Shown: positions 31,644 to 41,740 of the stretch, piece after piece
Position numbering within the stretch: position 1 is the first letter of the stretch
How the letters are laid out: each line of letters opens with the position of its first letter
DNA from: Chloroflexota bacterium
GTDB lineage: Bacteria > Chloroflexota > Dehalococcoidia > SM23-28-2 > RBG-16-64-32
Assembly: GCA_036732045.1 (NCBI GenBank)
Contig: DAINDD010000001.1
Span: 60,828-122,729, forward strand
Direction of reading: 5' to 3'
DNA length: 61,902 nt
Notes under the pieces: generated by a model
Seen by the model: only the letters and a program-made list of their open reading frames with translations
What the model was told of the DNA's origin: nothing
The model's database searches: none
Translations under genes and position numbers: made by a program

Positions 31644-32519
31644 ATGTTCAGACTGGGCCGCACTCTTCTATCGGCGGCGGTGGGAATACTGCTGCCGCTA
31701 GCCATCGTTTCCAGCGTACGCGCGCAGACTCACACCGTCGCGCCGGGCGATTCGTTGTCGTACATCGCTGACCTCTACTCCGTGGCGATTAACGAGATCG
31801 TCCAACTGAACCACATCGCGAACCCGGACCTTATCTTGAGCGGGCAAAAGCTGGATATCCCGGGCGGCCAGGACCCCCGGCCATCCAGCTCTGGAGAAAC
31901 CTACACGGTCCAGCTGGGCGACACTCTCAGCCAGATCGCGGCTCGTTACGGCGTCTCGGTCGACAGTCTCGCGCAGGCCAACAGCATCGACAACCCCGAG
32001 TTCATCGTCGAAGGTCAGACGCTTGTCATCCCCGGCGCCGAGGCGAGCGCACCCACGCCGCAGCCGGCGACCGTCTACATACCGCCGCCGCCGCTACAGT
32101 TCCCGCCGATGCCGTACGATCCCGACATCGAAGCGATCATCGACGAAATGGCCGCGGCTTACGGCGTCGATCCGAATCTCGTGAAGGCAGTCGCGACGGT
32201 CGAGAGCGGTTGGACGGAGGGCGCCGACAGCGTCACAGGTGCACGTGGCGTCATGCAGATCATGCCCGGCACTGCGCAATACCTGCAGGACGAGGTCTTC
32301 GGCTACCCTCTTAACTACGACTCCAGCGCTTACGACAACATCAAGATGGGCACGAAGTACCTCCAGATCCTCCTGGACTCCACCGGCGGCGACGAACACC
32401 TGGCTGTCGCCTCCTACTACCAGGGCCTGGCGCCGACGCAGGCGGGCGTCTTCTACCCCGATACGTCTGACTACGTGAACATGATCTTTCGGGTGCGGGA
32501 CACGTACTGGCCTGAGTAG
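31644..32519 (+). CDS. Exported protein with two LysM domains and a lytic transglycosylase (SLT) domain
   Basis: Signal peptide; HTVAPGDSLSYIA, YTVQLGDTLSQIA; AVATVESG, GARGVMQIMPGT, ASYYQG. Confidence 0.9.
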   Translation: MFRLGRTLLSAAVGILLPLAIVSSVRAQTHTVAPGDSLSYIADLYSVAINEIVQLNHIANPDLILSGQKLDIPGGQDPRPSSSGETYTVQLGDTLSQIAARYGVSVDSLAQANSIDNPEFIVEGQTLVIPGAEASAPTPQPATVYIPPPPLQFPPMPYDPDIEAIIDEMAAAYGVDPNLVKAVATVESGWTEGADSVTGARGVMQIMPGTAQYLQDEVFGYPLNYDSSAYDNIKMGTKYLQILLDSTGGDEHLAVASYYQGLAPTQAGVFYPDTSDYVNMIFRVRDTYWPE

Positions 32520-32614
32520 GGGACAGCGGACAGGGGAAACAGTATACAGCTGGCCCGCGTAGGAGTCCGATACTGGTAAATCAATCGTCCGAAATACCAA
32601 CCTGGCGTCGCGTC

Positions 32615-32998
32615 ATGCGAGCCATCTTTCGCCCCGGTATGGACTGGAGTCCGTCCCTCGTGGAAGGGGAACGAATCATTCGCCACGGCCTAGCGGAAGA
32701 CCGCCGAGGGCTCGGCGGCGGGAACACGGGGCCTGTCTATCTCACAGATCGACGCCTCATCTGGCGTCAGGGTCCCATCACTTGGCCGCTTCGACGGTCG
32801 CAGCTAAATCTTCGCTTGGCAGACATCGATTCGGTGGGTAAGACGACAGTCTTCTCGTACATCGCCGGCGGCCATCGCTTGGAGCTTCGGATGAAGACGG
32901 GAAAGACACATCGGATCTGGGTTAATGGGCTCGACCAGTGGATTGAGGATGTCCGACACGCCGTGGACAATGCTCGGTTAGCCGAAGCCGCAGGCTGA
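32615..32998 (+). CDS. Hypothetical protein, possible PH/GRAM-like fold
   Basis: GPVYLTDRRLIW...LRLADIDSV pattern; lower GC. Confidence 0.5.
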   Translation: MRAIFRPGMDWSPSLVEGERIIRHGLAEDRRGLGGGNTGPVYLTDRRLIWRQGPITWPLRRSQLNLRLADIDSVGKTTVFSYIAGGHRLELRMKTGKTHRIWVNGLDQWIEDVRHAVDNARLAEAAG

Positions 32999-33001
32999 GC
33001 C

Positions 33002-33574
33002 TTACCCAGTCCCTGCAATCCCTAGCGTTTCCGCCACCGGCTTCAGCGCCTCGATCACGAACGCGATGTGCTCGTCCAGGTCCACGCCGAGCACTGCTGC
33101 GCCGTCGGTGATGTCCTCGCGGCGGACGGCGCGCGCGAAGCCTTTGTCCTTCATCTTCTTCTTGACCGAGGCCACGTCCACCTCGTGGATGCTCTTGCTC
33201 GGCCGCACCAATGCCACGGCGGTGATGAAGCCGGATAGCTCGTCGACGGCGAAGATCGCGCGGTCCATGTTGTTTTCGCGCACAACGCCCAGATCGTCCA
33301 AATAGAACGCGTGGCAGAGCACGGCGTGCACGATCTCCTCCGGCACGCCGCGCTCCCGCAGGATCGGGGCGCCCTTCTTCGGATGCTCCTCCGCATTCGG
33401 GTGCATCTCGTAGTCGAAGTCGTGCAGCAGCCCGACGCAGCCCCACATCTCCTCGTCCTCGCCGTACTTGCGGGCGTACGCGCGCATCGTCGCCTCTACC
33501 GCCAGGCCGTGCTTGCGCAACGCGTCCGCCTTCGTGTACTCACAGAGGATCTCCCAGGCTTCGTCTCGCTTCAT
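33002..33574 (-). CDS. HDIG-domain metal-dependent phosphohydrolase
   Basis: LRKHGLAVEA, GLLHDFDYE, AVDELSGFITAVALVRP, KKMKDKGFARAV. Confidence 0.9.
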   Translation of the reverse strand: MKRDEAWEILCEYTKADALRKHGLAVEATMRAYARKYGEDEEMWGCVGLLHDFDYEMHPNAEEHPKKGAPILRERGVPEEIVHAVLCHAFYLDDLGVVRENNMDRAIFAVDELSGFITAVALVRPSKSIHEVDVASVKKKMKDKGFARAVRREDITDGAAVLGVDLDEHIAFVIEALKPVAETLGIAGTG

Positions 33575-33829
33575 GGAACGCTCCTTCAAAAGATAGCCGC
33601 GGATTTTCGCGGATTGTACGCGGATTATGCAAGGGTAGCGGGTTGGGCTGTCAACGAATCGACACCGAATCAACGAATAGAACGCCGCATCCGCCTATCC
33701 GCTCATATCCTCCGTGAGTCCGATGCTGAGTGCTGAGAGCTAAACGCCAGCGTTGCCGCATAACTTGTCGCATTTCCGCGCGTCTAGACCTGAGGTACCA
33801 TAGGTGTACACAAAAAGAGGTGATCAGAT

Positions 33830-34720
33830 ATGCCGAGATCGATCTGGAACGGCGTCATTAGCTTCGGGATGGTCAGCATCCCGGTGAAGCTGTACACCGC
33901 CACGGAAGACAAGGACATCAGCTTCAACCTCCTGCACAAGGAGTGCGGGTCCCGTTTGAAGCAGATCAGATGGTGCCCGGTCCACGAGCGCGCAGTGGAG
34001 TGGAGCGAGATCGCCCGAGGCTATGAGTATGCCAAGGACGAGTACATCACGATGGACGACGCCGACTTTGAGAAGTTGCCGCTGCCCAGCAAGCACGCCG
34101 TCGAGCTTTCGGCGTTCGTGGATGCGGCGCAGATCGACCCGATCTACTACCAGCGCACGTACTATTTGGAGCCGGAGGAGAAGGGCGTCAAGCCGTACGC
34201 GCTGCTCATGCGCGCCTTGAAGGACAAGCAGCTCACCGGCATCGCCAAGATCGCGATCCGCAATAAGGAGCAGCTCTGCGCCCTGCGGCCGATGGACGGC
34301 TCGCTCGTCCTGGAAACCCTCTTCTACCCGGACGAGATCCGCGAAGTGCCGAGCGAAGTGCCAGACACCAAGGTTTCTGAGAAAGAGCTCGACATGGCGA
34401 CGGCGCTGATCGATCTCCTCCGCGACGACTTCGAGCCGGAGAAGTACAAGGACGAGTATCGCGAGGCGCTAATGCAGGTGATCGACGCCAAGCTCGAAGG
34501 TGAAGAGCTATCGGCGCCGAAGGCCACGCGCCCGGCCAAGATCACCGACCTCATGACCGCGCTCAAAGCCAGCGTCGAAGCTGCGAAGAAGGGCCAGAAG
34601 AGCCGAGCCCCTGCTGAGGAGCAGGATGAGGTCACACCTCGCCGCCGCAAGAAGGCCGCCGCTGACGAGGACCACGACGAAGTTACTCCCCGTCGCCGCA
34701 AAAAGGCCGCCGCCGGCTAA
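33830..34720 (+). CDS. ku: NHEJ protein Ku
   Basis: RSIWNGVISFGMVSIPVKLYTA, IDPIYYQRTYYL, ETLFYPDEIR, DLMTALKAS; GAGGTG RBS. Confidence 0.96.
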   Translation: MPRSIWNGVISFGMVSIPVKLYTATEDKDISFNLLHKECGSRLKQIRWCPVHERAVEWSEIARGYEYAKDEYITMDDADFEKLPLPSKHAVELSAFVDAAQIDPIYYQRTYYLEPEEKGVKPYALLMRALKDKQLTGIAKIAIRNKEQLCALRPMDGSLVLETLFYPDEIREVPSEVPDTKVSEKELDMATALIDLLRDDFEPEKYKDEYREALMQVIDAKLEGEELSAPKATRPAKITDLMTALKASVEAAKKGQKSRAPAEEQDEVTPRRRKKAAADEDHDEVTPRRRKKAAAG

Positions 34721-34779
34721 CCCCCGGTTGGTGCGACCACAGTTCGCGGTGCTCACTTAACGCGCGATAATGGGTGCGC

Positions 34780-37623
34780 ATGCTCAAGGAATACGGCCGG
34801 AAGCGCGACTTCCAGAAGACGTCCGAGCCGCCGCCGCATCCGCCCGCGAAACACGACGGCCGGCTCATGTTCGTTGTCCAGAAGCACGACGCCAGCCGCC
34901 TGCACTACGACTTCCGGCTGGAGTTCGAGGGCGTCCTCAAGTCATGGCCCATCCCGAAGGGCCCTTCGCTCGACCCCAAGGACAAGCGGCTTGCCGTCAT
35001 GGTGGAGGACCATCCCCTCGACTACGCCTCGTTCGAAGGTGTCATCCCGAAGGGTGAGTACGGCGGCGGACAGGTAATCGTCTGGGACGCCGGGACGTAC
35101 TCTCCGGACGAAGAAGGCGTGCTCTCTTGGGACGACCGCGACGAGGCCGACCGCCGGATGCAAGAGGGCCTCGCGCGGGGGAAGCTCTCCGTCTACTTGC
35201 AGGGCCATAAGCTCAAGGGGTCGTTCACGCTCGTCAAGATCGCCCGCGCCGAGAAGGAGTGGCTCTTCATCAAGCACAAGGACCGCTTCGTCGACACCGA
35301 GCGAGACGTGACGCTGGAACACCGCTCGATCATCTCCGGCCTGAGCATCGCCGACATCAAGGCCGGCCTCCTGCCGGACCGCGTGCACCAGCGACTCATC
35401 GTTCACCCGAAGGACGCGCGCGGCGCCAAGCGCACTGCCTTCCCAAAGTCGCTGGAGCCGATGCAGGGCACCCTCAGCGAGGCGCCATTCTCCTCGCCGG
35501 ACTGGTACTTCGAGCCGAAGATGGACGGCGTCCGCGCGATCGTCTTCATCAACGGCGATAGCGTTCGCGTGATCTCCCGCAGCGGCCTCGACGCGACGCG
35601 GCAGTACCCGACGATCGTCGCCGAAATGGCGGAGCAGACGGAGCGCCACCTCGTCCTGGACGGCGAGATCGTGGCGCTGAACGAGAAGGGCGTGCCGTCC
35701 TTCCAGACGATCCAGCAGCGCCTCAACCTGCAGCGCGACTCCGACATCCGCAAGATGGACGAGCAGATCCCCGTTTACTTCTACGGCTTTGATATTCTCT
35801 ACGCCGGCGGCTATGACCTGCGCGGCGCCCCGCTCAGCGACCGCAAGGCGCTTCTCAAGCAGCTGCTCGTGCCGACTGACCACATCCACCTGCTGGAGCA
35901 CTTCGAAGAGGACGGCGTGGCGGCGTACCAGGGCGCGATCGCCGCCGGGTTGGAGGGCGTCATGGCCAAGAGGCGCGACAGCGTCTACGAGTCCGGGCGT
36001 CGCTCGAAGGCCTGGCTGAAGGTGAAGGGCACGCTGGAGGACGAGTTTGTCGTGGGCGGCTACACCGGCGGCACCGGCGGCCGCGCGAAGACGTTCGGCT
36101 CGCTCCTCGTGGGGCAATACGATGACCAAGGTCGCCTCGTCTACGCCGGAAACGTGGGCACCGGCTTCGACGAAAAGACGCTAACCTCGCTCCTCAAGCG
36201 CCTCGACTCCCTGAAGACGGACAGATCCCCGTTCGACATCATGACGCCGGGAACGTCACGCTTCGGCCGCCCCAAGGACGTGCTGATCACATGGGTGAAG
36301 CCGGAGCTAGTCGCGCGGGTGAAATTCGCCGAGTGGACGAACGATGGCCACCTACGCGCGCCGAGCTTCCTCGGCCTGCGCGACGACAAACCCCCGCATG
36401 ATGTCCACCGAGAAGTAGTTGTGACGCCGCCGGACGACCCGGACGACGATCCGTCGGCGCGCCGGGTATCCGCTCACGCTGAGGCTCTCGAAGCGCGAGC
36501 GGATGAGCGTGGGCGACGACCATCGAAGCGCCGCAAGGCCTCTGCCTCAACGGACGATCCGCTCGTTGCCGACGTCCTCGAGCAGCTCGAGCAGGAGGCT
36601 GAGAAGTTCGTGCTCAAGGTCGGCGACGATAAGGTGCCGCTGAGCAATCTCGACAAGCCACTCTGGCCGGAGTGGGAAAAGCGCCGCCCGCTCACCAAGC
36701 GCGACTTGCTCGTCTACTTCGCGCGCGTCTCCCCGTACCTCCTGCCGCACCTGCACGGCCGGCCGATCACGCTCACCCGCTACCCCAACGGCATCGAGGC
36801 CAAGCACTTCTATCAAAAGCACTGGGAGAGCAAGCTGCCGCCGTTCGTCGACCCGGTGACGGTCTGGTCGGAGCAGTTCCACACCGACCAGGAGTACTTG
36901 CTCTGCAACAACGTGCCGACGCTGCTCTGGCTGGGCCAGCTCGCCGACATCGAGCTGCACACGTGGTACTCGCGCGTCGACAAAGGACCGGACGGCGCGC
37001 GCCTGCCGGACTACACGGGCGGTGGCGAGGAGAAGTTCGACCGATCCCGCCTCAACTTCCCCGACTTCATCGTCTTCGACCTCGACCCGTACATCTACTC
37101 AGGGGAGGAGAAGCACGGCGCCGAGCCGGAGCTCAACCGCAAGGCGTTCCTCAAGACCTGTGACGTGGCGTTCTGGCTGAAAGACCTGCTCGACTCGCTA
37201 TCGCTGTCGTCGTTCGTGAAGACGACCGGCAAGACAGGCTTGCACATCTACGTCCCCATCGTCCGCCACTTCGACTACGACGCCGTGCGCTCCGCGGCCG
37301 AGACCGTTGGCCGCTTCCTCGTGCGCGCCCACCCGAAAGACGTCACGATGGAGTGGAGCGTCCCCAAGCGCGCCGACAAAATCTTTTTCGACCACAACCA
37401 GAACGTGAAAGGCAAGACGCTGGCCTCCCTCTACTCGCCGCGGCCGGTCGGCTGGGCTGGCGTCTCGATGCCCCTGCGCTGGGATGAGCTGCGCGACATC
37501 TACCCCACGCACTTCACAATACTTAACGCTTGCGACCGCCTCGCGGAAACAGGCGACCTCTGGTCTAACATCCTCGCCGAAAAGCACGACCTGGCAGGGA
37601 TGCTGGAGGCGACGGGAGCCTAG
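34780..37623 (+). CDS. ligD: NHEJ ligase D (phosphoesterase - ligase - polymerase order)
   Basis: PE: QKHDASRLHYDFRLE; LIG: EPKMDG, LDGEIV, EGVMAK, WLKVK; POL: FDLDP, KTTGKTGLHIYVP. Confidence 0.96.
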   Translation: MLKEYGRKRDFQKTSEPPPHPPAKHDGRLMFVVQKHDASRLHYDFRLEFEGVLKSWPIPKGPSLDPKDKRLAVMVEDHPLDYASFEGVIPKGEYGGGQVIVWDAGTYSPDEEGVLSWDDRDEADRRMQEGLARGKLSVYLQGHKLKGSFTLVKIARAEKEWLFIKHKDRFVDTERDVTLEHRSIISGLSIADIKAGLLPDRVHQRLIVHPKDARGAKRTAFPKSLEPMQGTLSEAPFSSPDWYFEPKMDGVRAIVFINGDSVRVISRSGLDATRQYPTIVAEMAEQTERHLVLDGEIVALNEKGVPSFQTIQQRLNLQRDSDIRKMDEQIPVYFYGFDILYAGGYDLRGAPLSDRKALLKQLLVPTDHIHLLEHFEEDGVAAYQGAIAAGLEGVMAKRRDSVYESGRRSKAWLKVKGTLEDEFVVGGYTGGTGGRAKTFGSLLVGQYDDQGRLVYAGNVGTGFDEKTLTSLLKRLDSLKTDRSPFDIMTPGTSRFGRPKDVLITWVKPELVARVKFAEWTNDGHLRAPSFLGLRDDKPPHDVHREVVVTPPDDPDDDPSARRVSAHAEALEARADERGRRPSKRRKASASTDDPLVADVLEQLEQEAEKFVLKVGDDKVPLSNLDKPLWPEWEKRRPLTKRDLLVYFARVSPYLLPHLHGRPITLTRYPNGIEAKHFYQKHWESKLPPFVDPVTVWSEQFHTDQEYLLCNNVPTLLWLGQLADIELHTWYSRVDKGPDGARLPDYTGGGEEKFDRSRLNFPDFIVFDLDPYIYSGEEKHGAEPELNRKAFLKTCDVAFWLKDLLDSLSLSSFVKTTGKTGLHIYVPIVRHFDYDAVRSAAETVGRFLVRAHPKDVTMEWSVPKRADKIFFDHNQNVKGKTLASLYSPRPVGWAGVSMPLRWDELRDIYPTHFTILNACDRLAETGDLWSNILAEKHDLAGMLEATGA

Positions 37624-37817
37624 AACGGACCCAACTTCTCGTCGTCCGCCGAACCCTCCTCGGAGCTGGACGCCGGCAGGTCGATTAGCAGCGCCATGCC
37701 GATGAAGAACAGGGCGCCCAGCGCGACGAAATAGTCGTGTGTGGCCACCGCGCCCGCCAGCCAGAACGCACTGATCGCCATGTTGATCAGGAACCACGAG
37801 AAAGAGTTGTCGAACAC
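37620..37817 (-). CDS. Small 65-aa membrane protein with two hydrophobic segments
   Basis: GGAG RBS; GTG overlaps upstream TAG (TAGTG); FSWFLINMAISAFWLAGAVA and YFVALGALFFIGMALLI. Confidence 0.6.
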   Translation of the reverse strand: MFDNSFSWFLINMAISAFWLAGAVATHDYFVALGALFFIGMALLIDLPASSSEEGSADDEKLGPF

Positions 37818-38872
37818 TACTCCGTCTCCGAGACCCGGCAGCTCTCGGGCGGCACGTCCGGGCGCAGCGCCTTGAACACCGGGAATCGCAGGCGTCCGTC
37901 CCGGGCTGGCTCGGCGTAGTTTATCGCCGCTACGACCTCCGGCCGGCACCAGAAGACCAGCCGCTCCAGCGTCGGCTCTTCCGAGAACTGGCAGGCCGCC
38001 GTCGTCGCCTCGTCCAGGCGGCGGACAAGCTCGCCGATCTCATCCTGGAAGCCGCCGCTCACCTCGCCTGCAAAATCGAGTTGTCCGTCCTCGCGCAAGA
38101 GGCCCAGCAGCAGCGACGAGATCGCCTCACGCGGCCTCGAACCGCCGCGCGGGTTCCAGCGGCCTCCGTAAGTGAACCCGCCCACGATGAAGTCGCGCTT
38201 CTTTTGCACCCGCACCGTCAGCCAGGCCCGGCTGCGCTGGCCCGTCAGGTAGCGGCTGTCCGCCTCCTTGGCGACGATGCCCTCCAGTCCGTGCTCCCGC
38301 GCTGCTTCGAAGAAAGCGACGCCGTCCTTCGTCACATAGTCCGGAACGGCGATCGTTGCATCGGGCCGCACGAGGCTGCGCAGCATTTCCTTTCGCCGCT
38401 GCAGCGCCCAGCCGGTCACAGCCTGCCGCTCCTGGTACACGAGGTCGAACGCCTGCAGCGTCACCGGGTATTGCTCGGCGAGCGATCGGGCGGTCTCCGC
38501 GTCGTCCACCGCCAGGCGGTGGCGCAGCCGTGAGAAGTCGGGCCGCCCGTCGGCGTTCAGGCAAACGATCTCGCCGTCGATGACCATCCCCGACTCCCGC
38601 AGGCGCCCGGCGAGCGAGGACAGCTCCGGGTAGCGCTGCGTCACATCGCGACCCCAGCGGTCTTGCAGACGGACGTTGCCCTGCTCGGCGAAGGCCAGCG
38701 AGCGGACGCCGTCCCACAATACCTCGAAAACGTGAGCAGGCGAATCGAACGGTTCAGCGGCGGCCGCCGGCAGCATCGGCTCGATCACCTGTGGCAAGGT
38801 CGCGCGGGCGGGCATGGCGGGCGGCGCCGCAGCTTGCCGGCGCCCGTGGCGAAGTGTCATCGCCCGCCCCAC
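37817..38872 (-). CDS. ATP-dependent DNA ligase homologue lacking catalytic lysines (start uncertain: 38872, 38860 or 38815)
   Basis: IEPML, FEVLWDGVR, IDGEIV, AFDLVY, EGIVAK, WLTVR, OB-fold LRFPVFKALRPD. Confidence 0.85.
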   Translation of the reverse strand: MGRAMTLRHGRRQAAAPPAMPARATLPQVIEPMLPAAAAEPFDSPAHVFEVLWDGVRSLAFAEQGNVRLQDRWGRDVTQRYPELSSLAGRLRESGMVIDGEIVCLNADGRPDFSRLRHRLAVDDAETARSLAEQYPVTLQAFDLVYQERQAVTGWALQRRKEMLRSLVRPDATIAVPDYVTKDGVAFFEAAREHGLEGIVAKEADSRYLTGQRSRAWLTVRVQKKRDFIVGGFTYGGRWNPRGGSRPREAISSLLLGLLREDGQLDFAGEVSGGFQDEIGELVRRLDEATTAACQFSEEPTLERLVFWCRPEVVAAINYAEPARDGRLRFPVFKALRPDVPPESCRVSETE

Positions 38873-39173
38873 GTATTCATCTTATTCAGAAGATAGCGCA
38901 GGCTCGGGGCGTCGTCCACATTGCGATGACACGGGGGAACCGGGAAATGGCGACTGGGATCATACCCTCGAGGTCGGCCCTTACTCCTGTTCGCGGTTCC
39001 TCCCCGGCTAACTGAAAAGTCACGCCTCTGTAACCGTTTCTTAACCGAAAGCCGCCATGCCTGTCCTACTATTCAATAGCCGCGCCTTGGTTCTCATCGC
39101 CGCACCCCCAAACGACGGAGAGAGCAGCGCGCTTTTTTTCTTTCTCCAGGATTTGGGGCTACACTAGAAGCAG

Positions 39174-39485
39174 ATGGCAAACAAGGTTCATGAAAACGGC
39201 TGGTACATCTGGTCCAGCCATGGCACAGTCCTCTTCTACGTCGCGCTGAACCCGGGATGCACGATCGCCGAAATCGCTGAGGGCCTTTGTCTCACACAGC
39301 GGACCATCTGGGGCGTCGTCGGAGACCTGCGTCGCGCCGGCATGCTCAACATCACCCGCGAAGGACGCCGACATCGCTACAGCGTTAAGCTCGACGCCAC
39401 CTTCCGCCACCCGACGATCGAGAGCGTCCCCCTGCGCACGCTCTTTGGGCGGCTGCCCCAAGTCCGCCAGGCGACGACCGCCTAA
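39174..39485 (+). CDS. Small winged helix-turn-helix protein
   Basis: HGTVLFYVALNPGCTIAEIAEGLCLTQRTIWGVVGDLRRAGML...REGRRHRYSV. Confidence 0.8.
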   Translation: MANKVHENGWYIWSSHGTVLFYVALNPGCTIAEIAEGLCLTQRTIWGVVGDLRRAGMLNITREGRRHRYSVKLDATFRHPTIESVPLRTLFGRLPQVRQATTA

Positions 39486-40834
39486 GCGCGCGCAGCCGAA
39501 AGCGCCTCGACGATCGCTTCGTCCTGCGCCGGATCGACTGTCCGCGGGTCGAGAAGCAGCTTTCCGCCCTCGATGCGAGCAACGACCGCCGGGTCACCGA
39601 GCCGCAGCGCCCGCGCGATCTGGTTGAGTCTCGCGCCGTCGTCTTCGACCGCCAGGAGCTTCGTCGGCAGGCTCTCCTCCGGCAGGCTGCCGCCGCCGAT
39701 CATCGACCGCCCGTCGACGACTTTCGATCCGGAGACGACTCCCGCCCACGCCCGGGCCCGCGCCTCGATCTCCGCCAGCGGCATCGCGATCATCCGCCAG
39801 ACCGGGATGTGTGTTAGCGCCTCGCCCCGCAGGTAGTGCAGGAGCGTCGCTTGGAGCGCCGCGACCGAGGTCTTGTCCATTCGCACCGCGCGAGCCAGCG
39901 GATGACGCCGAAGGGTATCCACCAGCTCCGCCCGCCCGGCGATGATCCCCGCCTGCGGCCCGCCGAGCAACTTATCGCCCGAGAAGAGACAGAGGTCGGC
40001 GCCTGCTGCCATGCTTTCGCCCACCGATGGTTCGGCCGCCAGTCCGAACTGCCGCACGTCCAGCAGGCAGCCGGAACCGATGTCATCCAGCAGCAGCAGG
40101 CCGCGCTCGTGCGCCACCCGCGCCAGGTCGCGCAGTTCCGGCTGCTCGGTGAAACCGGTGATGCGGAAATTACTCGCGTGCACCCGCATGACTGCCGCTG
40201 TGTCGGGCCTGATCGCCGCCTCGTAATCGCGCAAATATGTGCGGTTCGTGGTGCCGACTTCGATCGGGGTCGCACCTGACTGGCGCATCACGTCCGGGAT
40301 CCGGAAGCCGCCGCCGATCTCGACAGCCTGCCCGCGCGAGACGATCACACCGCGGCCGGAAGCCAGTGCGGTCAGCGCCAGCAGCAGCGCCGAGGCATTG
40401 TTGTTCACCGCAATCGCCGCCTCCGCGCCGGTCAGTTGGCGCAGCGCCGCTTCCAGGTGCGTGAACCTTGAACCCCGCTCGCCAGCTTCGAGGTCAAACT
40501 CCAGATTCGAGTAGCCGCGTGAAACCGCTGCCATCGCCTCGATCGCCGCGCTCGAAAGTGGCGCGCGGCCGAGGTTCGTGTGGATGATCACACCTGTCGC
40601 GTTGATCACCGGCCGCAGCGACGGCTCGAACACCAACCGCGCTAGCCCCAGCACGTCCTCAGCCAGCCGCTCCTCCGACGGCGCCTCCGATCCTCGCGCG
40701 ATCGCGCCGCGTGCCGTCTCCAGCGCCTGCCGGGCGAGCTCCGTCAACGTCCCACCGTCTTCTTCGAGCGCACGCAGCCGCTCGTGCCGCACGAGCTTGT
40801 CCACCGATGGCAGGCTTCGATATGCATCAGCCAC
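39482..40834 (-). CDS. selA: L-seryl-tRNA(Sec) selenium transferase
   Basis: VINATGVIIHTNLGRAPL, NNNASAL, SRGQAVEIGGGFRIPD, VGTTNRT, FSGDKLLGGPQAG. Confidence 0.97.
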   Translation of the reverse strand: MADAYRSLPSVDKLVRHERLRALEEDGGTLTELARQALETARGAIARGSEAPSEERLAEDVLGLARLVFEPSLRPVINATGVIIHTNLGRAPLSSAAIEAMAAVSRGYSNLEFDLEAGERGSRFTHLEAALRQLTGAEAAIAVNNNASALLLALTALASGRGVIVSRGQAVEIGGGFRIPDVMRQSGATPIEVGTTNRTYLRDYEAAIRPDTAAVMRVHASNFRITGFTEQPELRDLARVAHERGLLLLDDIGSGCLLDVRQFGLAAEPSVGESMAAGADLCLFSGDKLLGGPQAGIIAGRAELVDTLRRHPLARAVRMDKTSVAALQATLLHYLRGEALTHIPVWRMIAMPLAEIEARARAWAGVVSGSKVVDGRSMIGGGSLPEESLPTKLLAVEDDGARLNQIARALRLGDPAVVARIEGGKLLLDPRTVDPAQDEAIVEALSAARA

Positions 40835-40987
40835 GCCCTAAAGTGTACGAGAGCAACCCGGAACTTGGAACAAGAAAGCCGGCTGTCGTGGGTCCTCGTT
40901 CCGAGTTCCTCGTTCCTTTGCGTCCCGTTAACATCCCGTTCAACCGTACCCCCTACGATATGATGGCGACGGGAGGGAAAACCACCG

Positions 40988-41740
40988 ATGGCTGACGAGA
41001 AGATACCGGCGGAAGCCCAACAACAATTCGGCGACAAGGGCCGTGCCGCGCGTGTGCCCGGCGTCTTCGACCAGGCGTTTCTGACCGACGTGGAAGGCGT
41101 TACCGAGGTCATCTTTATCCGTCACGCGCAGCCCGACATCAACTTTGAGGGCGTTGTCGGCGACACGATCGACCCGACTCTGACCGAGCACGGCCGTATG
41201 CAGGCGAACCTCATCGCCGAAGCGCTCTCGACGAAGAGGATCGACGCGATCTTCTCAAGCCCGCTCAAGCGTGCGATGGAGACTGCCCGGCCGATCGCCG
41301 CGCAGCACAAACACCTTGAGCTGAAGGTGGTCCCCGACCTCCGCGAAGTCGAGATCTTCCGCGATATCCCGCCCGACAAAACCGTGCAAGACTTCATCGG
41401 CCGGGAGCTGCTGATTGGCGTCCGCAACCGCATGCTCGATGAGCGCTCCTGGGACGTCTACCCCTACTCGGAGCCGAGCCGCGACTTCCGCAAGCGCTGC
41501 ATCAACGCCATCGAAGCGTGTATCGCCCACAACGCCGGCCACCGCATCGTCATCGTCTGTCACGGCGGTGTCATCAACGCCTACATGGGCCACATCATCC
41601 GCTCCGAGTACGACATGTTCTTCCGTCCCGCGCACGCCTCCATCAGCGTCGCCGTCGTGGGCGAGGGCCGCCGCGTTCTGCGCCTGCTTAATGACATTCA
41701 CCACCTGACAAACGTTGAAGGCGACTTCGCGACATATTAG
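40988..41740 (+). CDS. Histidine phosphatase (phosphoglycerate mutase) family protein
   Basis: FIRHAQ, SSPLKRAMETA, DLREV, IVCHGGVIN. Confidence 0.9.
   Translation: MADEKIPAEAQQQFGDKGRAARVPGVFDQAFLTDVEGVTEVIFIRHAQPDINFEGVVGDTIDPTLTEHGRMQANLIAEALSTKRIDAIFSSPLKRAMETARPIAAQHKHLELKVVPDLREVEIFRDIPPDKTVQDFIGRELLIGVRNRMLDERSWDVYPYSEPSRDFRKRCINAIEACIAHNAGHRIVIVCHGGVINAYMGHIIRSEYDMFFRPAHASISVAVVGEGRRVLRLLNDIHHLTNVEGDFATY

Follow-up and report, generated by a model that had tools for sequence, protein, structure and literature searches.

A LigD-type ligase paralogue without the catalytic lysine beside ku and ligD in Dehalococcoidia, a candidate non-catalytic accessory of bacterial end joining

Known end-joining ligases and the Dehalococcoidia locus

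Bacterial NHEJ (non-homologous end joining) is taught as a two-protein machine made up of Ku and LigD, and the only bacterial extras known to us are active back-up ligases and polymerases. Here we describe a locus of a soil-type Chloroflexota bacterium (Dehalococcoidia; assembly GCA_036732045.1, contig DAINDD010000001.1) in which ku and ligD are accompanied by a gene for a stand-alone ligase domain of the LigD type, termed pLig, from which the lysine of motif I is absent. The window, i.e., the whole stretch of DNA that was analysed, is 61,902 nt long. Across related genomes pLig is tied to ligD and ku. We consider it moderately probable that pLig serves NHEJ as a regulated accessory without catalysis, by which the Ku-LigD locus would be extended in one lineage, a Dehalococcoidia-type Chloroflexota family. 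All pLig carriers are uncultured Chloroflexota.

LigC and the ligase-only 'LigD' of Streptomyces are likewise single nucleotidyltransferase (NTase) plus OB modules encoded beside ku, ligD or pol genes, and four lysine-bearing sisters of pLig (loci L011, L017, L020, and L022) fit that kind. LigC and ligase-only 'LigD' are active back-up sealers, whereas pLig has neither the adenylylation lysine nor the motif V lysines. Passages of one report describe extra stand-alone ligase copies that take part in break repair in several bacteria (PMC5124664). In the portions of the open-access literature searched, including PMC8656161, PMC7470946, and PMC5124664, we found no account of an NHEJ ligase paralogue that lacks the lysine. 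A possible parallel comes from eukaryotes: according to four reports, engineered catalytically dead ligase IV still promotes repair or synapsis (PMC9638927, PMC11754673, PMC3549972, PMC10858965). In that system the presence of the ligase, not its chemistry, supports end synapsis and repair, as we propose by analogy for pLig. The dead forms of ligase IV are laboratory point mutants of the sole essential NHEJ ligase, working with XRCC4/XLF, whereas pLig is a natural and separate paralogue encoded beside an intact LigD. If the proposal is true, pLig would be a bacterial counterpart of the recently shown non-catalytic role of ligase IV. The eukaryotic work on dead ligase IV makes a role of this kind plausible in principle.

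An earlier, sequence-only reading of the window had described ku-ligD as converging, with a 4-nt stop overlap, on a minus-strand pair formed by a pseudo-ligase and a coupled 65-aa protein with two transmembrane segments, and a winged helix-turn-helix (HTH) gene as divergent from that pair. The open reading frame (ORF) table, the sequence and the domain scans bear out this arrangement, at the following coordinates:

33830-34720, plus strand: ku, 296 aa (PF02735, E-value 1.9e-52, 178.4 bits; TIGR02772, 309.6 bits vs. a cut-off of 150)
34774-37623, plus strand: ligD, 949 aa, domain order PE, ligase, primase/polymerase
37620-37817, minus strand: TM65, 65 aa, two hydrophobic helices and an acidic tail (DLPASSSEEGSADDEKLGPF)
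37817-38872, minus strand: pLig, stand-alone LigD-type ligase-domain paralogue (NTase plus OB), 347 or 351 aa, motif I lysine absent (L52)
39174-39485, plus strand: winged-helix (HTH) gene, 103 aa, divergent from the pLig-TM65 pair

Ku has the β-barrel core and a TIGR02772 score at equivalog level. In LigD, PF13298 (LigD_N, PE), PF01068 and PF04679 (DNA_ligase_A_M and DNA_ligase_A_C), and PF21686 (LigD_Prim-Pol) all scored above the Pfam cut-offs; with an intact motif I (FEPKMDGVR) and a TIGR02776 score of 494.7 bits vs. a cut-off of 373.2, it is a multidomain LigD. The plus-strand ku and ligD converge on the minus-strand pair, and the ligD stop TAG (37621-37623) and the TM65 stop TAG (minus strand, 37622-37620) share the palindrome CTAG, which gives the 4-nt overlap. 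The GTG start of TM65 (37817-37815) overlaps the pLig stop TAG (37819-37817) in the sequence 'GAGTAGTGTTC' (TAGTG), and a gap of ∼313 bp separates pLig from the divergent HTH gene. In the C-terminus of Ku (window positions 34600-34720), a Lys/Arg-rich tail is tandemly duplicated (…DEVTPRRRKKAAA twice).

Conservation of pLig and its linkage to ligD and ku

Both ligase domains of pLig scored above the Pfam cut-offs (PF01068, E = 2e-26, 93.4 bits; PF04679, E = 4.7e-18, 65.8 bits), and the protein is 36% identical to the ligase domain of LigD (E = 2e-56). The ATG at 38860, giving 347 aa, is probably the true start, as homologues of 347 aa suggest. The top-scoring family was TIGR02779 (NHEJ_ligase_lig), at 223.3 bits just under its cut-off of 227.75; the LigC family NF006078 reached 140.9 bits vs. 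a cut-off of 296. By score, pLig is closer to the LigD ligase domain than to LigC. An AlphaFold2 model (pLDDT 91.8) had its best Foldseek matches in 6nhx and 6nhz, the LigD ligase domain of Mycobacterium tuberculosis (E ∼1e-27; 1.7e-27 for 6nhx).

The NTase and the OB fold are thus both present in pLig, and what is missing are the adenylylation lysine of motif I (KxDG) and the lysines of motif V. Motif I reads FEVLWDGVR in pLig vs. FEPKMDGVR in LigD, with L52 aligned to the LigD lysine, and motif V reads WLTVRV vs. WLKVKG, so that both lysines are replaced (T219 and R221). The window protein retains D54, G55, and R57 of motif I, D99-G-E101 of motif III (DGEIV), and E197 and K202 of motif IV (EGIVAK). 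Read from its motifs, pLig is a ligase paralogue without the adenylylation nucleophile.

A homologue search returned 326 proteins at E ≤ 1e-10 among 8000 candidates, and the motif counts that follow use the best 120 of the 326. The column of the motif I lysine holds L in 69 sequences, I in 18, C, M, and A in 3 each, Y in 1, and K in 19, with 4 gaps; 97 homologues are lysine-less. The label of pseudo-ligase, given in the sequence-only reading, is supported by this analysis of a large family. Eighteen of the 19 lysine-bearing homologues read K-D-E-E-K-K at the six scored catalytic positions. The lysine-less homologues lose further positions clade by clade: the motif III Glu is changed to A (30) or V (13), the motif IV Glu to L (21), G (5) or A (5), the motif I Asp to E (23), and the motif V Lys to T, S or A. 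An alignment of 52 lysine-less sequences, with identity down to 47%, has 38 invariant columns and a mean column identity of 51%; R57, D99, K202, and W217 are invariant in it. All pLig reading frames examined were open. By these measures lysine-less pLig is a conserved family and not a product of decay. Loss of the motif VI lysine was considered as a further mark of inactivation and rejected; lysine-bearing stand-alone relatives also read RPDV.

The phylogeny of pLig was estimated with FastTree from 129 rows, with the LigD domain of the window as outgroup; rows shorter than 300 aa or gapped at motif I were excluded, and 11 proteins from the loci described below were added. Ninety-eight lysine-less rows formed a single clade (support 99), and three additional small lysine-less lineages were placed among the lysine-bearing rows. 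The lysine state changes 4 times in total on this tree, and at least 2 of the changes are forced by well-supported branches. Lysine loss apparently occurred more than once; the count of independent losses is provisional, because the tree was built quickly and some of its branches are long. A conserved paralogue that gave up catalysis, apparently repeatedly, and yet remains in the locus suggests a structural job. We propose that pLig works without catalysis, as a DNA-nick or DNA-end-binding subunit or as a partner of Ku or LigD that would stabilise or channel the joining complex; catalytically dead ligase IV, with its structural role in the NHEJ of eukaryotes, would be the parallel.

Another reading leaves pLig part of its chemistry. 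It could not adenylylate itself, but it might bind nicks that are already 5'-adenylylated, take them through step 3 of ligation, and thereby rescue LigD reactions that abort. Lys-to-Ala mutants of the Chlorella virus ligase reportedly seal pre-adenylylated nicks, and the residues of motifs I, III, and IV kept in the window protein, as well as the four residues invariant in 52 sequences, are compatible with such an activity. However, the window protein has neither of the motif V lysines, and large subclades have lost the motif III Glu and the motif IV Glu and have altered the motif I Asp. Because of these subclades, step-3 chemistry would not be the common function of the family, and we regard this reading as quite unlikely.

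For the structural role, the surroundings of pLig carry further evidence. We retrieved 24 related loci, all from metagenome-assembled genomes (MAGs) of Chloroflexota/Dehalococcoidia. Motif I splits them into 20 lysine-less and 4 lysine-bearing loci (L011, L017, L020, and L022), numbers to be read with a retrieval bias toward lysine-less forms, as one of the three peptide patterns used demanded L or I at the lysine site. A full ligD lies tail-to-tail with the pair in 17 of the 20 lysine-less loci, directly adjacent in 16 and with three intervening genes in L010, and ku is present in 13; L016 stops at a contig edge. In the lysine-bearing loci the paralogue comes directly after ku (L017, L020) or before ku (L022). 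The outer neighbours vary and include SelA, PGM, MgsA/RarA (7 loci), citrate synthase, a β-lactamase-fold protein, SBP_5, DUF72, and a methyltransferase. Because these neighbours differ so widely, the adjacency of pLig to ligD and ku is more than frozen synteny, and because the same arrangement recurs in other genomes, it is not due to chance.

The test of conserved co-occurrence that the sequence-only reading had proposed was therefore positive: among the 20 lysine-less loci, ligD was found in 17, ku in 13, and the HTH gene in 17, and TM65 in 12 of the 19 that could be assessed for it. The five-gene unit suggested in that reading holds in part. The genes recur together, but the set is not fixed: TM65 belongs to a subclade, the HTH gene is missing from 3 lysine-less loci, and the lysine-bearing relatives have neither TM65 nor the HTH gene.

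Some minor features of the loci were also recorded. A gene for an MgsA/RarA-type AAA+ recombination factor adjoins the HTH gene, or is one gene off, in L004, L005, L006, L007, L008, L014, and L016; the same slot beyond the HTH gene is occupied by selA in the window and L003, and by a phosphoglycerate-mutase-family gene in L001 and L002. In three long-contig MAGs (L002, L013, and L020) the alignment of ligD is broken into two adjoining pieces that differ in frame, through frameshifts or long-read errors. The genome of the window has a third ATP-dependent ligase locus (C11:47542-48080) in which PF01068 is matched by two neighbouring frames, open over 119 and 329 aa, and this split suggests a frameshift or a sequencing error.

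The coupled membrane microprotein TM65

The two hydrophobic segments of TM65 had Kyte-Doolittle means of 2.47 and 1.86 over 17 aa, in agreement with the two transmembrane segments claimed before. A coupled small ORF 3' of pLig was found in 12 of the 19 assessable lysine-less loci. In 10 of these 12 loci and in the window, the start of the ORF abuts the pLig stop or overlaps it (ATGA, GTGA, TAGTG, TAATG, or 8 nt upstream), and in the other two loci it comes 1 nt (L003) and 6 nt (L004) past the pLig stop codon. By alignment and hydropathy, 11 of 13 members have two hydrophobic helices, and 11 of 13 have an acidic tail of the (D/E)LPGTSSEEG type; the tail of L012 is basic, and L019 has a 41-aa form with one helix. 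The ratio of non-synonymous to synonymous substitution rates (dN/dS) in the closest pairs was 0.18 (window vs. L002) and 0.22 (L005 vs. L014). A profile search gave 81 proteins, all unnamed and all from Dehalococcoidia, and three TM65 homologues bear locus tags consecutive with those of pLig homologues. TM65 had no match in Pfam or NCBIfam, and the best scores against the ESM Atlas (0.85-0.86) were to unnamed clusters and lay below the informative level. From these comparisons TM65 is a real gene, gained in only part of the pLig clade, and it adds an unnamed microprotein family of 81 members.

In one subclade, pLig and TM65 would be made together through the overlapping stop and start codons. 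The acidic tail of TM65 is the likely contact surface and may place pLig at the membrane, translational coupling alone being the link between the two proteins that the sequence offers. Charge complementarity between pLig and the acidic tail was also considered; pLig is not basic (pI 6.2; family median 5.97), which gave no support for binding.

The coupling to a membrane protein is open to a second reading, in which pLig is a gate or decoy. This spells out the suggestion of the sequence-only reading that the unit might tether or gate end repair at the membrane. Here pLig would compete with LigD for Ku-bound ends or nicks, and TM65 would sequester or release it, so that joining is licensed conditionally. 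A dead enzyme that keeps its substrate-binding fold has the classic make-up of a competitive inhibitor; pLig is translationally coupled to a membrane protein, and it has a regulated promoter region of its own, apart from ku-ligD. The tie between pLig and TM65, however, consists in sequence of that coupling alone, and TM65 is missing from 7 of the 19 assessable lysine-less loci. The sequence data do not separate inhibition from assistance, and we consider the gate or decoy unlikely.

A third possibility is that nothing here has a dedicated function: pLig would be a ligase-domain duplicate in decay, the small ORF would be spurious, and the gene order would be synteny inherited among close relatives. 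All examples do come from one bacterial lineage, the housekeeping neighbours HD, LysM, and PGM are syntenic too in the closest relatives, and the catalytic motifs degrade stepwise over the subclades. Against this stand the open frames of pLig, its 38 invariant columns over 52 sequences and its confidently predicted fold, the 98-row lysine-less clade with independent losses beside it, and an adjacency kept in rearranged contexts. Moreover, TM65 has a conserved start overlap, a tail motif, a dN/dS of ∼0.2 in close pairs, and 81 homologues. Absence of function is thus very improbable.

The divergent region: HTH gene, repeats and hairpin

The regulated part of the accessory reading concerns the HTH gene and the region between it and pLig. 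The HTH gene, as had been claimed, is divergent from the pLig-TM65 pair, and its AlphaFold2 model (pLDDT 85.0) has the winged-helix core of three helices and a two-strand wing (H-H-H-strand-strand). As in the ArsR/MarR regulators, a three-helix core is combined with a β-wing, and the nearest solved folds are those of ArsR, CadC, SlyA, MepR, and HlyU; the Foldseek matches to ArsR, MarR, CadC, SlyA, and MepR chains had E-values of 0.9-2e-3 and TM-scores of ∼0.5 over ∼60 residues. Unlike those regulators, the protein scored below every family cut-off (MarR_2, 21.6 bits vs. 27; HTH_24, 18 vs. 21.9; HTH_11, 16.6 vs. 25; NCBIfam NF033788, 18.3 vs. 55), and it belongs to a small, lineage-restricted family with 60 homologues at ≥52% identity. 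By score it is therefore not assigned to the MarR/ArsR family. The HTH gene is divergent from pLig in 17 of the 20 lysine-less loci and in 0 of the 4 lysine-bearing ones, and this adjacency is retained while the outer neighbour of the HTH gene varies. In the window, the end of the HTH gene overlaps the convergent selA (39482-40834; PF03841, E = 1.2e-131) by 4 nt at 39482-39485, as ligD and TM65 overlap each other. Three HTH paralogues are present in the same genome (C34:1970-2239, C11:24127-24378, and C115:3217-3480; 62, 42, and 31% identity), and the C11 paralogue has an N-terminal extension of ∼80 aa.

The intergenic region was aligned from the window and 17 loci (18 sequences), and in this alignment it is the most conserved sequence of the locus. 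Positions 38875-39170, which had been proposed for HTH binding, contain strongly conserved direct repeats and a hairpin of RNA type. The features are as follows:

38890-38918, minus strand: promoter-like pair for pLig, TGGACG, 17 nt, TATCTT, proposed from the conserved columns T.G..G and TA...TC
39009-39045, minus strand: four direct repeats GT(T/G)A with an exact period of 11 nt (GTTAAgaaacgGTTACagaggcGTGACttttcaGTTA), a candidate operator array
39067-39072, plus strand: -10-like TACTAT (TAnnnT) directly upstream of the hairpin, the proposed start region of an HTH-sense transcript
39078-39139, plus strand: hairpin and U-run, with an invariant C-rich 17-mer (39093-39109) and the U-run at 39133-39139, ∼35 nt before the HTH start codon

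A consensus scan for sigma-70-type sites called 0 promoter-like sites, the pLig pair being under its threshold. The repeat array had 1 match in the window vs. 0 in 100 shuffles, and it is found at the same position in 15 of the 24 loci, with 0 matches of a reversed control in 292 kb. The conserved DNA motif near the HTH gene is thus a direct-repeat array, whereas the usual site of ArsR/MarR regulators is a palindrome. The TAnnnT column is kept in 19 of the 20 pLig-linked rows (L019 is offset by one column, and L051 reads TAAAGT).

The hairpin has a GCGCGC base, and the invariant 17-mer spans the loop and the 5' arm. A long hairpin of this one architecture was predicted for each of the 18 orthologues, despite a 3' arm that is not the same in all groups. 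In a model-based alignment of 31 sequences, the basal helix was 97.8% paired and had 15 double-sided changes vs. 5.7 in shuffles (0 of 500 as high). Nine G-U/U-G cells in this helix would be A-C mismatches on the opposite strand, and because these wobble cells fit one strand only, an RNA in the HTH sense is supported. Folding energy is indecisive on the strand, the HTH-sense fold being more stable in 8 of 18 sequences. RNAalifold on a MAFFT alignment recovered a 6-bp basal helix only; the inner stems vary in length and register and are supported only by the per-sequence folds. The hairpin is likely, though not proven, to be an RNA read in the HTH sense, given that the alignment is itself a fit to the model, that the sequences come from kin, and that the folding z-score of the window hairpin (minimum free energy -19.3 kcal/mol) is only -1.56. 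With the same z-score it has terminator-like traits, namely the GCGCGC-based stem followed by 7 U, and most orthologues have a T-rich tract; a consensus terminator scan did not call it, the loop limit of the scanner being 8 nt. Pairing of the hairpin with the pLig translation start was considered from an 8+4-bp match seen by eye in the window and dropped, the bases not being conserved in other loci.

A covariance model placed the hairpin upstream of pLig in 19 of the 20 lysine-less loci, and these 19 comprise every locus with a pLig inside the main lysine-less clade or closely similar to it. It found no hairpin in L011, L015, L017, L020, and L022 (0 of the 4 lysine-bearing loci); L015, the sole lysine-less locus without it, is on a separate lysine-loss lineage of the tree. 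Two loci (L018 and L021) keep hairpin and repeats while the HTH gene is replaced by citrate synthase. The actinobacterial 6C small RNA (sRNA), a structured RNA from high-GC bacteria, works through its C-rich hairpin loops and, according to two reports, is SOS-linked in Corynebacterium (PMC6486639, PMC5014011). The hairpin described here also exposes a C-rich loop and is found at a DNA-repair locus, and we name 6C as its nearest functional analogue, not as a family to which it belongs; unlike 6C, it consists of one hairpin, which would also serve in mRNA leaders as a terminator-like structure. An Rfam cmscan over 32000-41500 at E ≤ 1 gave no match, 6C included.

The hairpin also occurs elsewhere. 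In the 3.17-Mb assembly, the 17-mer has 4 exact copies vs. 0 for a reversed control; the copies beyond the window are at C21:3464-3543 (L026/L037), C30:28284-28334 (L027/L039), and C155:269-346 (L028/L038). None of the three HTH paralogues has the 17-mer upstream. At C21 the match covers the covariance model in full (E = 7.6e-12), and this copy lies between genes for an OmpR-type response regulator and a HisKA/HATPase kinase (by Pfam), on the same strand. It stands for a second conserved class of the hairpin, found upstream of a histidine-kinase ORF in 7 loci of relatives. In 14 of 15 other genomes of the same family the hairpin model gave 1-5 copies each; it also gave copies in 1 genome of a second family, and 9 genomes from four other families of this order had none. 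The intergenic hairpin is a candidate for a new RNA motif, of defined taxonomic range and with two gene contexts that are conserved. Binding of the GTTA repeats by an OmpR-type regulator was considered and rejected: the three-repeat array was present in 0 of 9 regulator-kinase loci, with one isolated two-repeat match.

This distribution raises the question of whether the HTH gene, the repeats, and the hairpin are a separate regulon, for example that of a two-component system with the same kinase-leader hairpin, which sits beside pLig without controlling it. Such a regulon is not exclusive of the other readings. The 1-5 copies per genome in most of the family, the hairpin class in front of kinase ORFs, and the three HTH paralogues elsewhere in the genome are all in line with it. 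On the other hand, 19 of 20 lysine-less loci, and 0 of the 4 lysine-bearing ones, have the hairpin upstream of pLig, and with the repeats it persists where the HTH gene is lost. The HTH-pLig adjacency stays while the outer neighbour changes, and the GTTA array was not found in the regulator-kinase loci. We think it unlikely that pLig escapes control by this region.

As part of the accessory reading we propose that expression is set from the divergent region, with the pLig promoter, the four GTnA repeats phased at 11 bp as a candidate operator, and an HTH-sense transcript. The transcript would begin with the terminator-like C-rich-loop hairpin, which would either attenuate the HTH gene or work as a small RNA, and the HTH protein, the hairpin or both may control pLig expression.

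Several observations weigh against the accessory reading. pLig can persist without adjacent NHEJ genes, because L004 has pLig, TM65, and the HTH gene with neither ligD nor ku within 5.5 kb downstream, and in L006 (3204-3596) pLig and the HTH gene have beside them no more of ligD and ku than residues 840-948 and residues 1-26, respectively. The L006 remnants look like a deletion, possibly a mis-assembly, and no small membrane ORF is present in that locus. HD, LysM, and PGM genes are likewise syntenic in the closest relatives, and since the genomes are all MAGs from a single lineage, synteny among kin comes by descent; the retrieval bias described above adds to this. Membrane anchoring is not essential to pLig function, because TM65 is absent from 7 assessable lysine-less loci. 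The topology of TM65 is not predictable, because K/R residues are almost absent, and its dN/dS is ∼1 in distant pairs (1.04 for window-L007 and 1.02 for window-L009), where dS is probably saturated. The motif VI change is uninformative on the timing of activity loss, because lysine-bearing relatives share RPDV. The folding z-score of the window hairpin is only -1.56, and the hairpin is not NHEJ-specific, because it is also found in a histidine-kinase leader and at two other genome sites.

A larger and doubtful extension of the accessory reading joins all these elements in a previously undescribed four-part accessory NHEJ system. It would consist of a dead-ligase end or nick sensor or synapsis subunit, TM65 as its membrane holder by way of the acidic tail, a lineage-specific HTH switch, and the C-rich-loop RNA hairpin as a further part of that switch. 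If this were true, the hairpin shared with the sensor-kinase leader would link end joining to a signal from the environment, for instance desiccation or starvation.

The C30 copy of the 17-mer lies in an 830-bp gap between genes for an M16 peptidase and an enoyl-CoA hydratase, and on the complementary strand of the 17-mer a strong terminator-like hairpin follows. That opposite strand (L027 1474-1624, minus) also had a sub-threshold match to RF01867 (Caulobacter sRNA CC2171) with 30.8 bits vs. a gathering score of 75 (E = 0.0013). An RNA from this strand may act in trans through complementarity to the C-rich loops.

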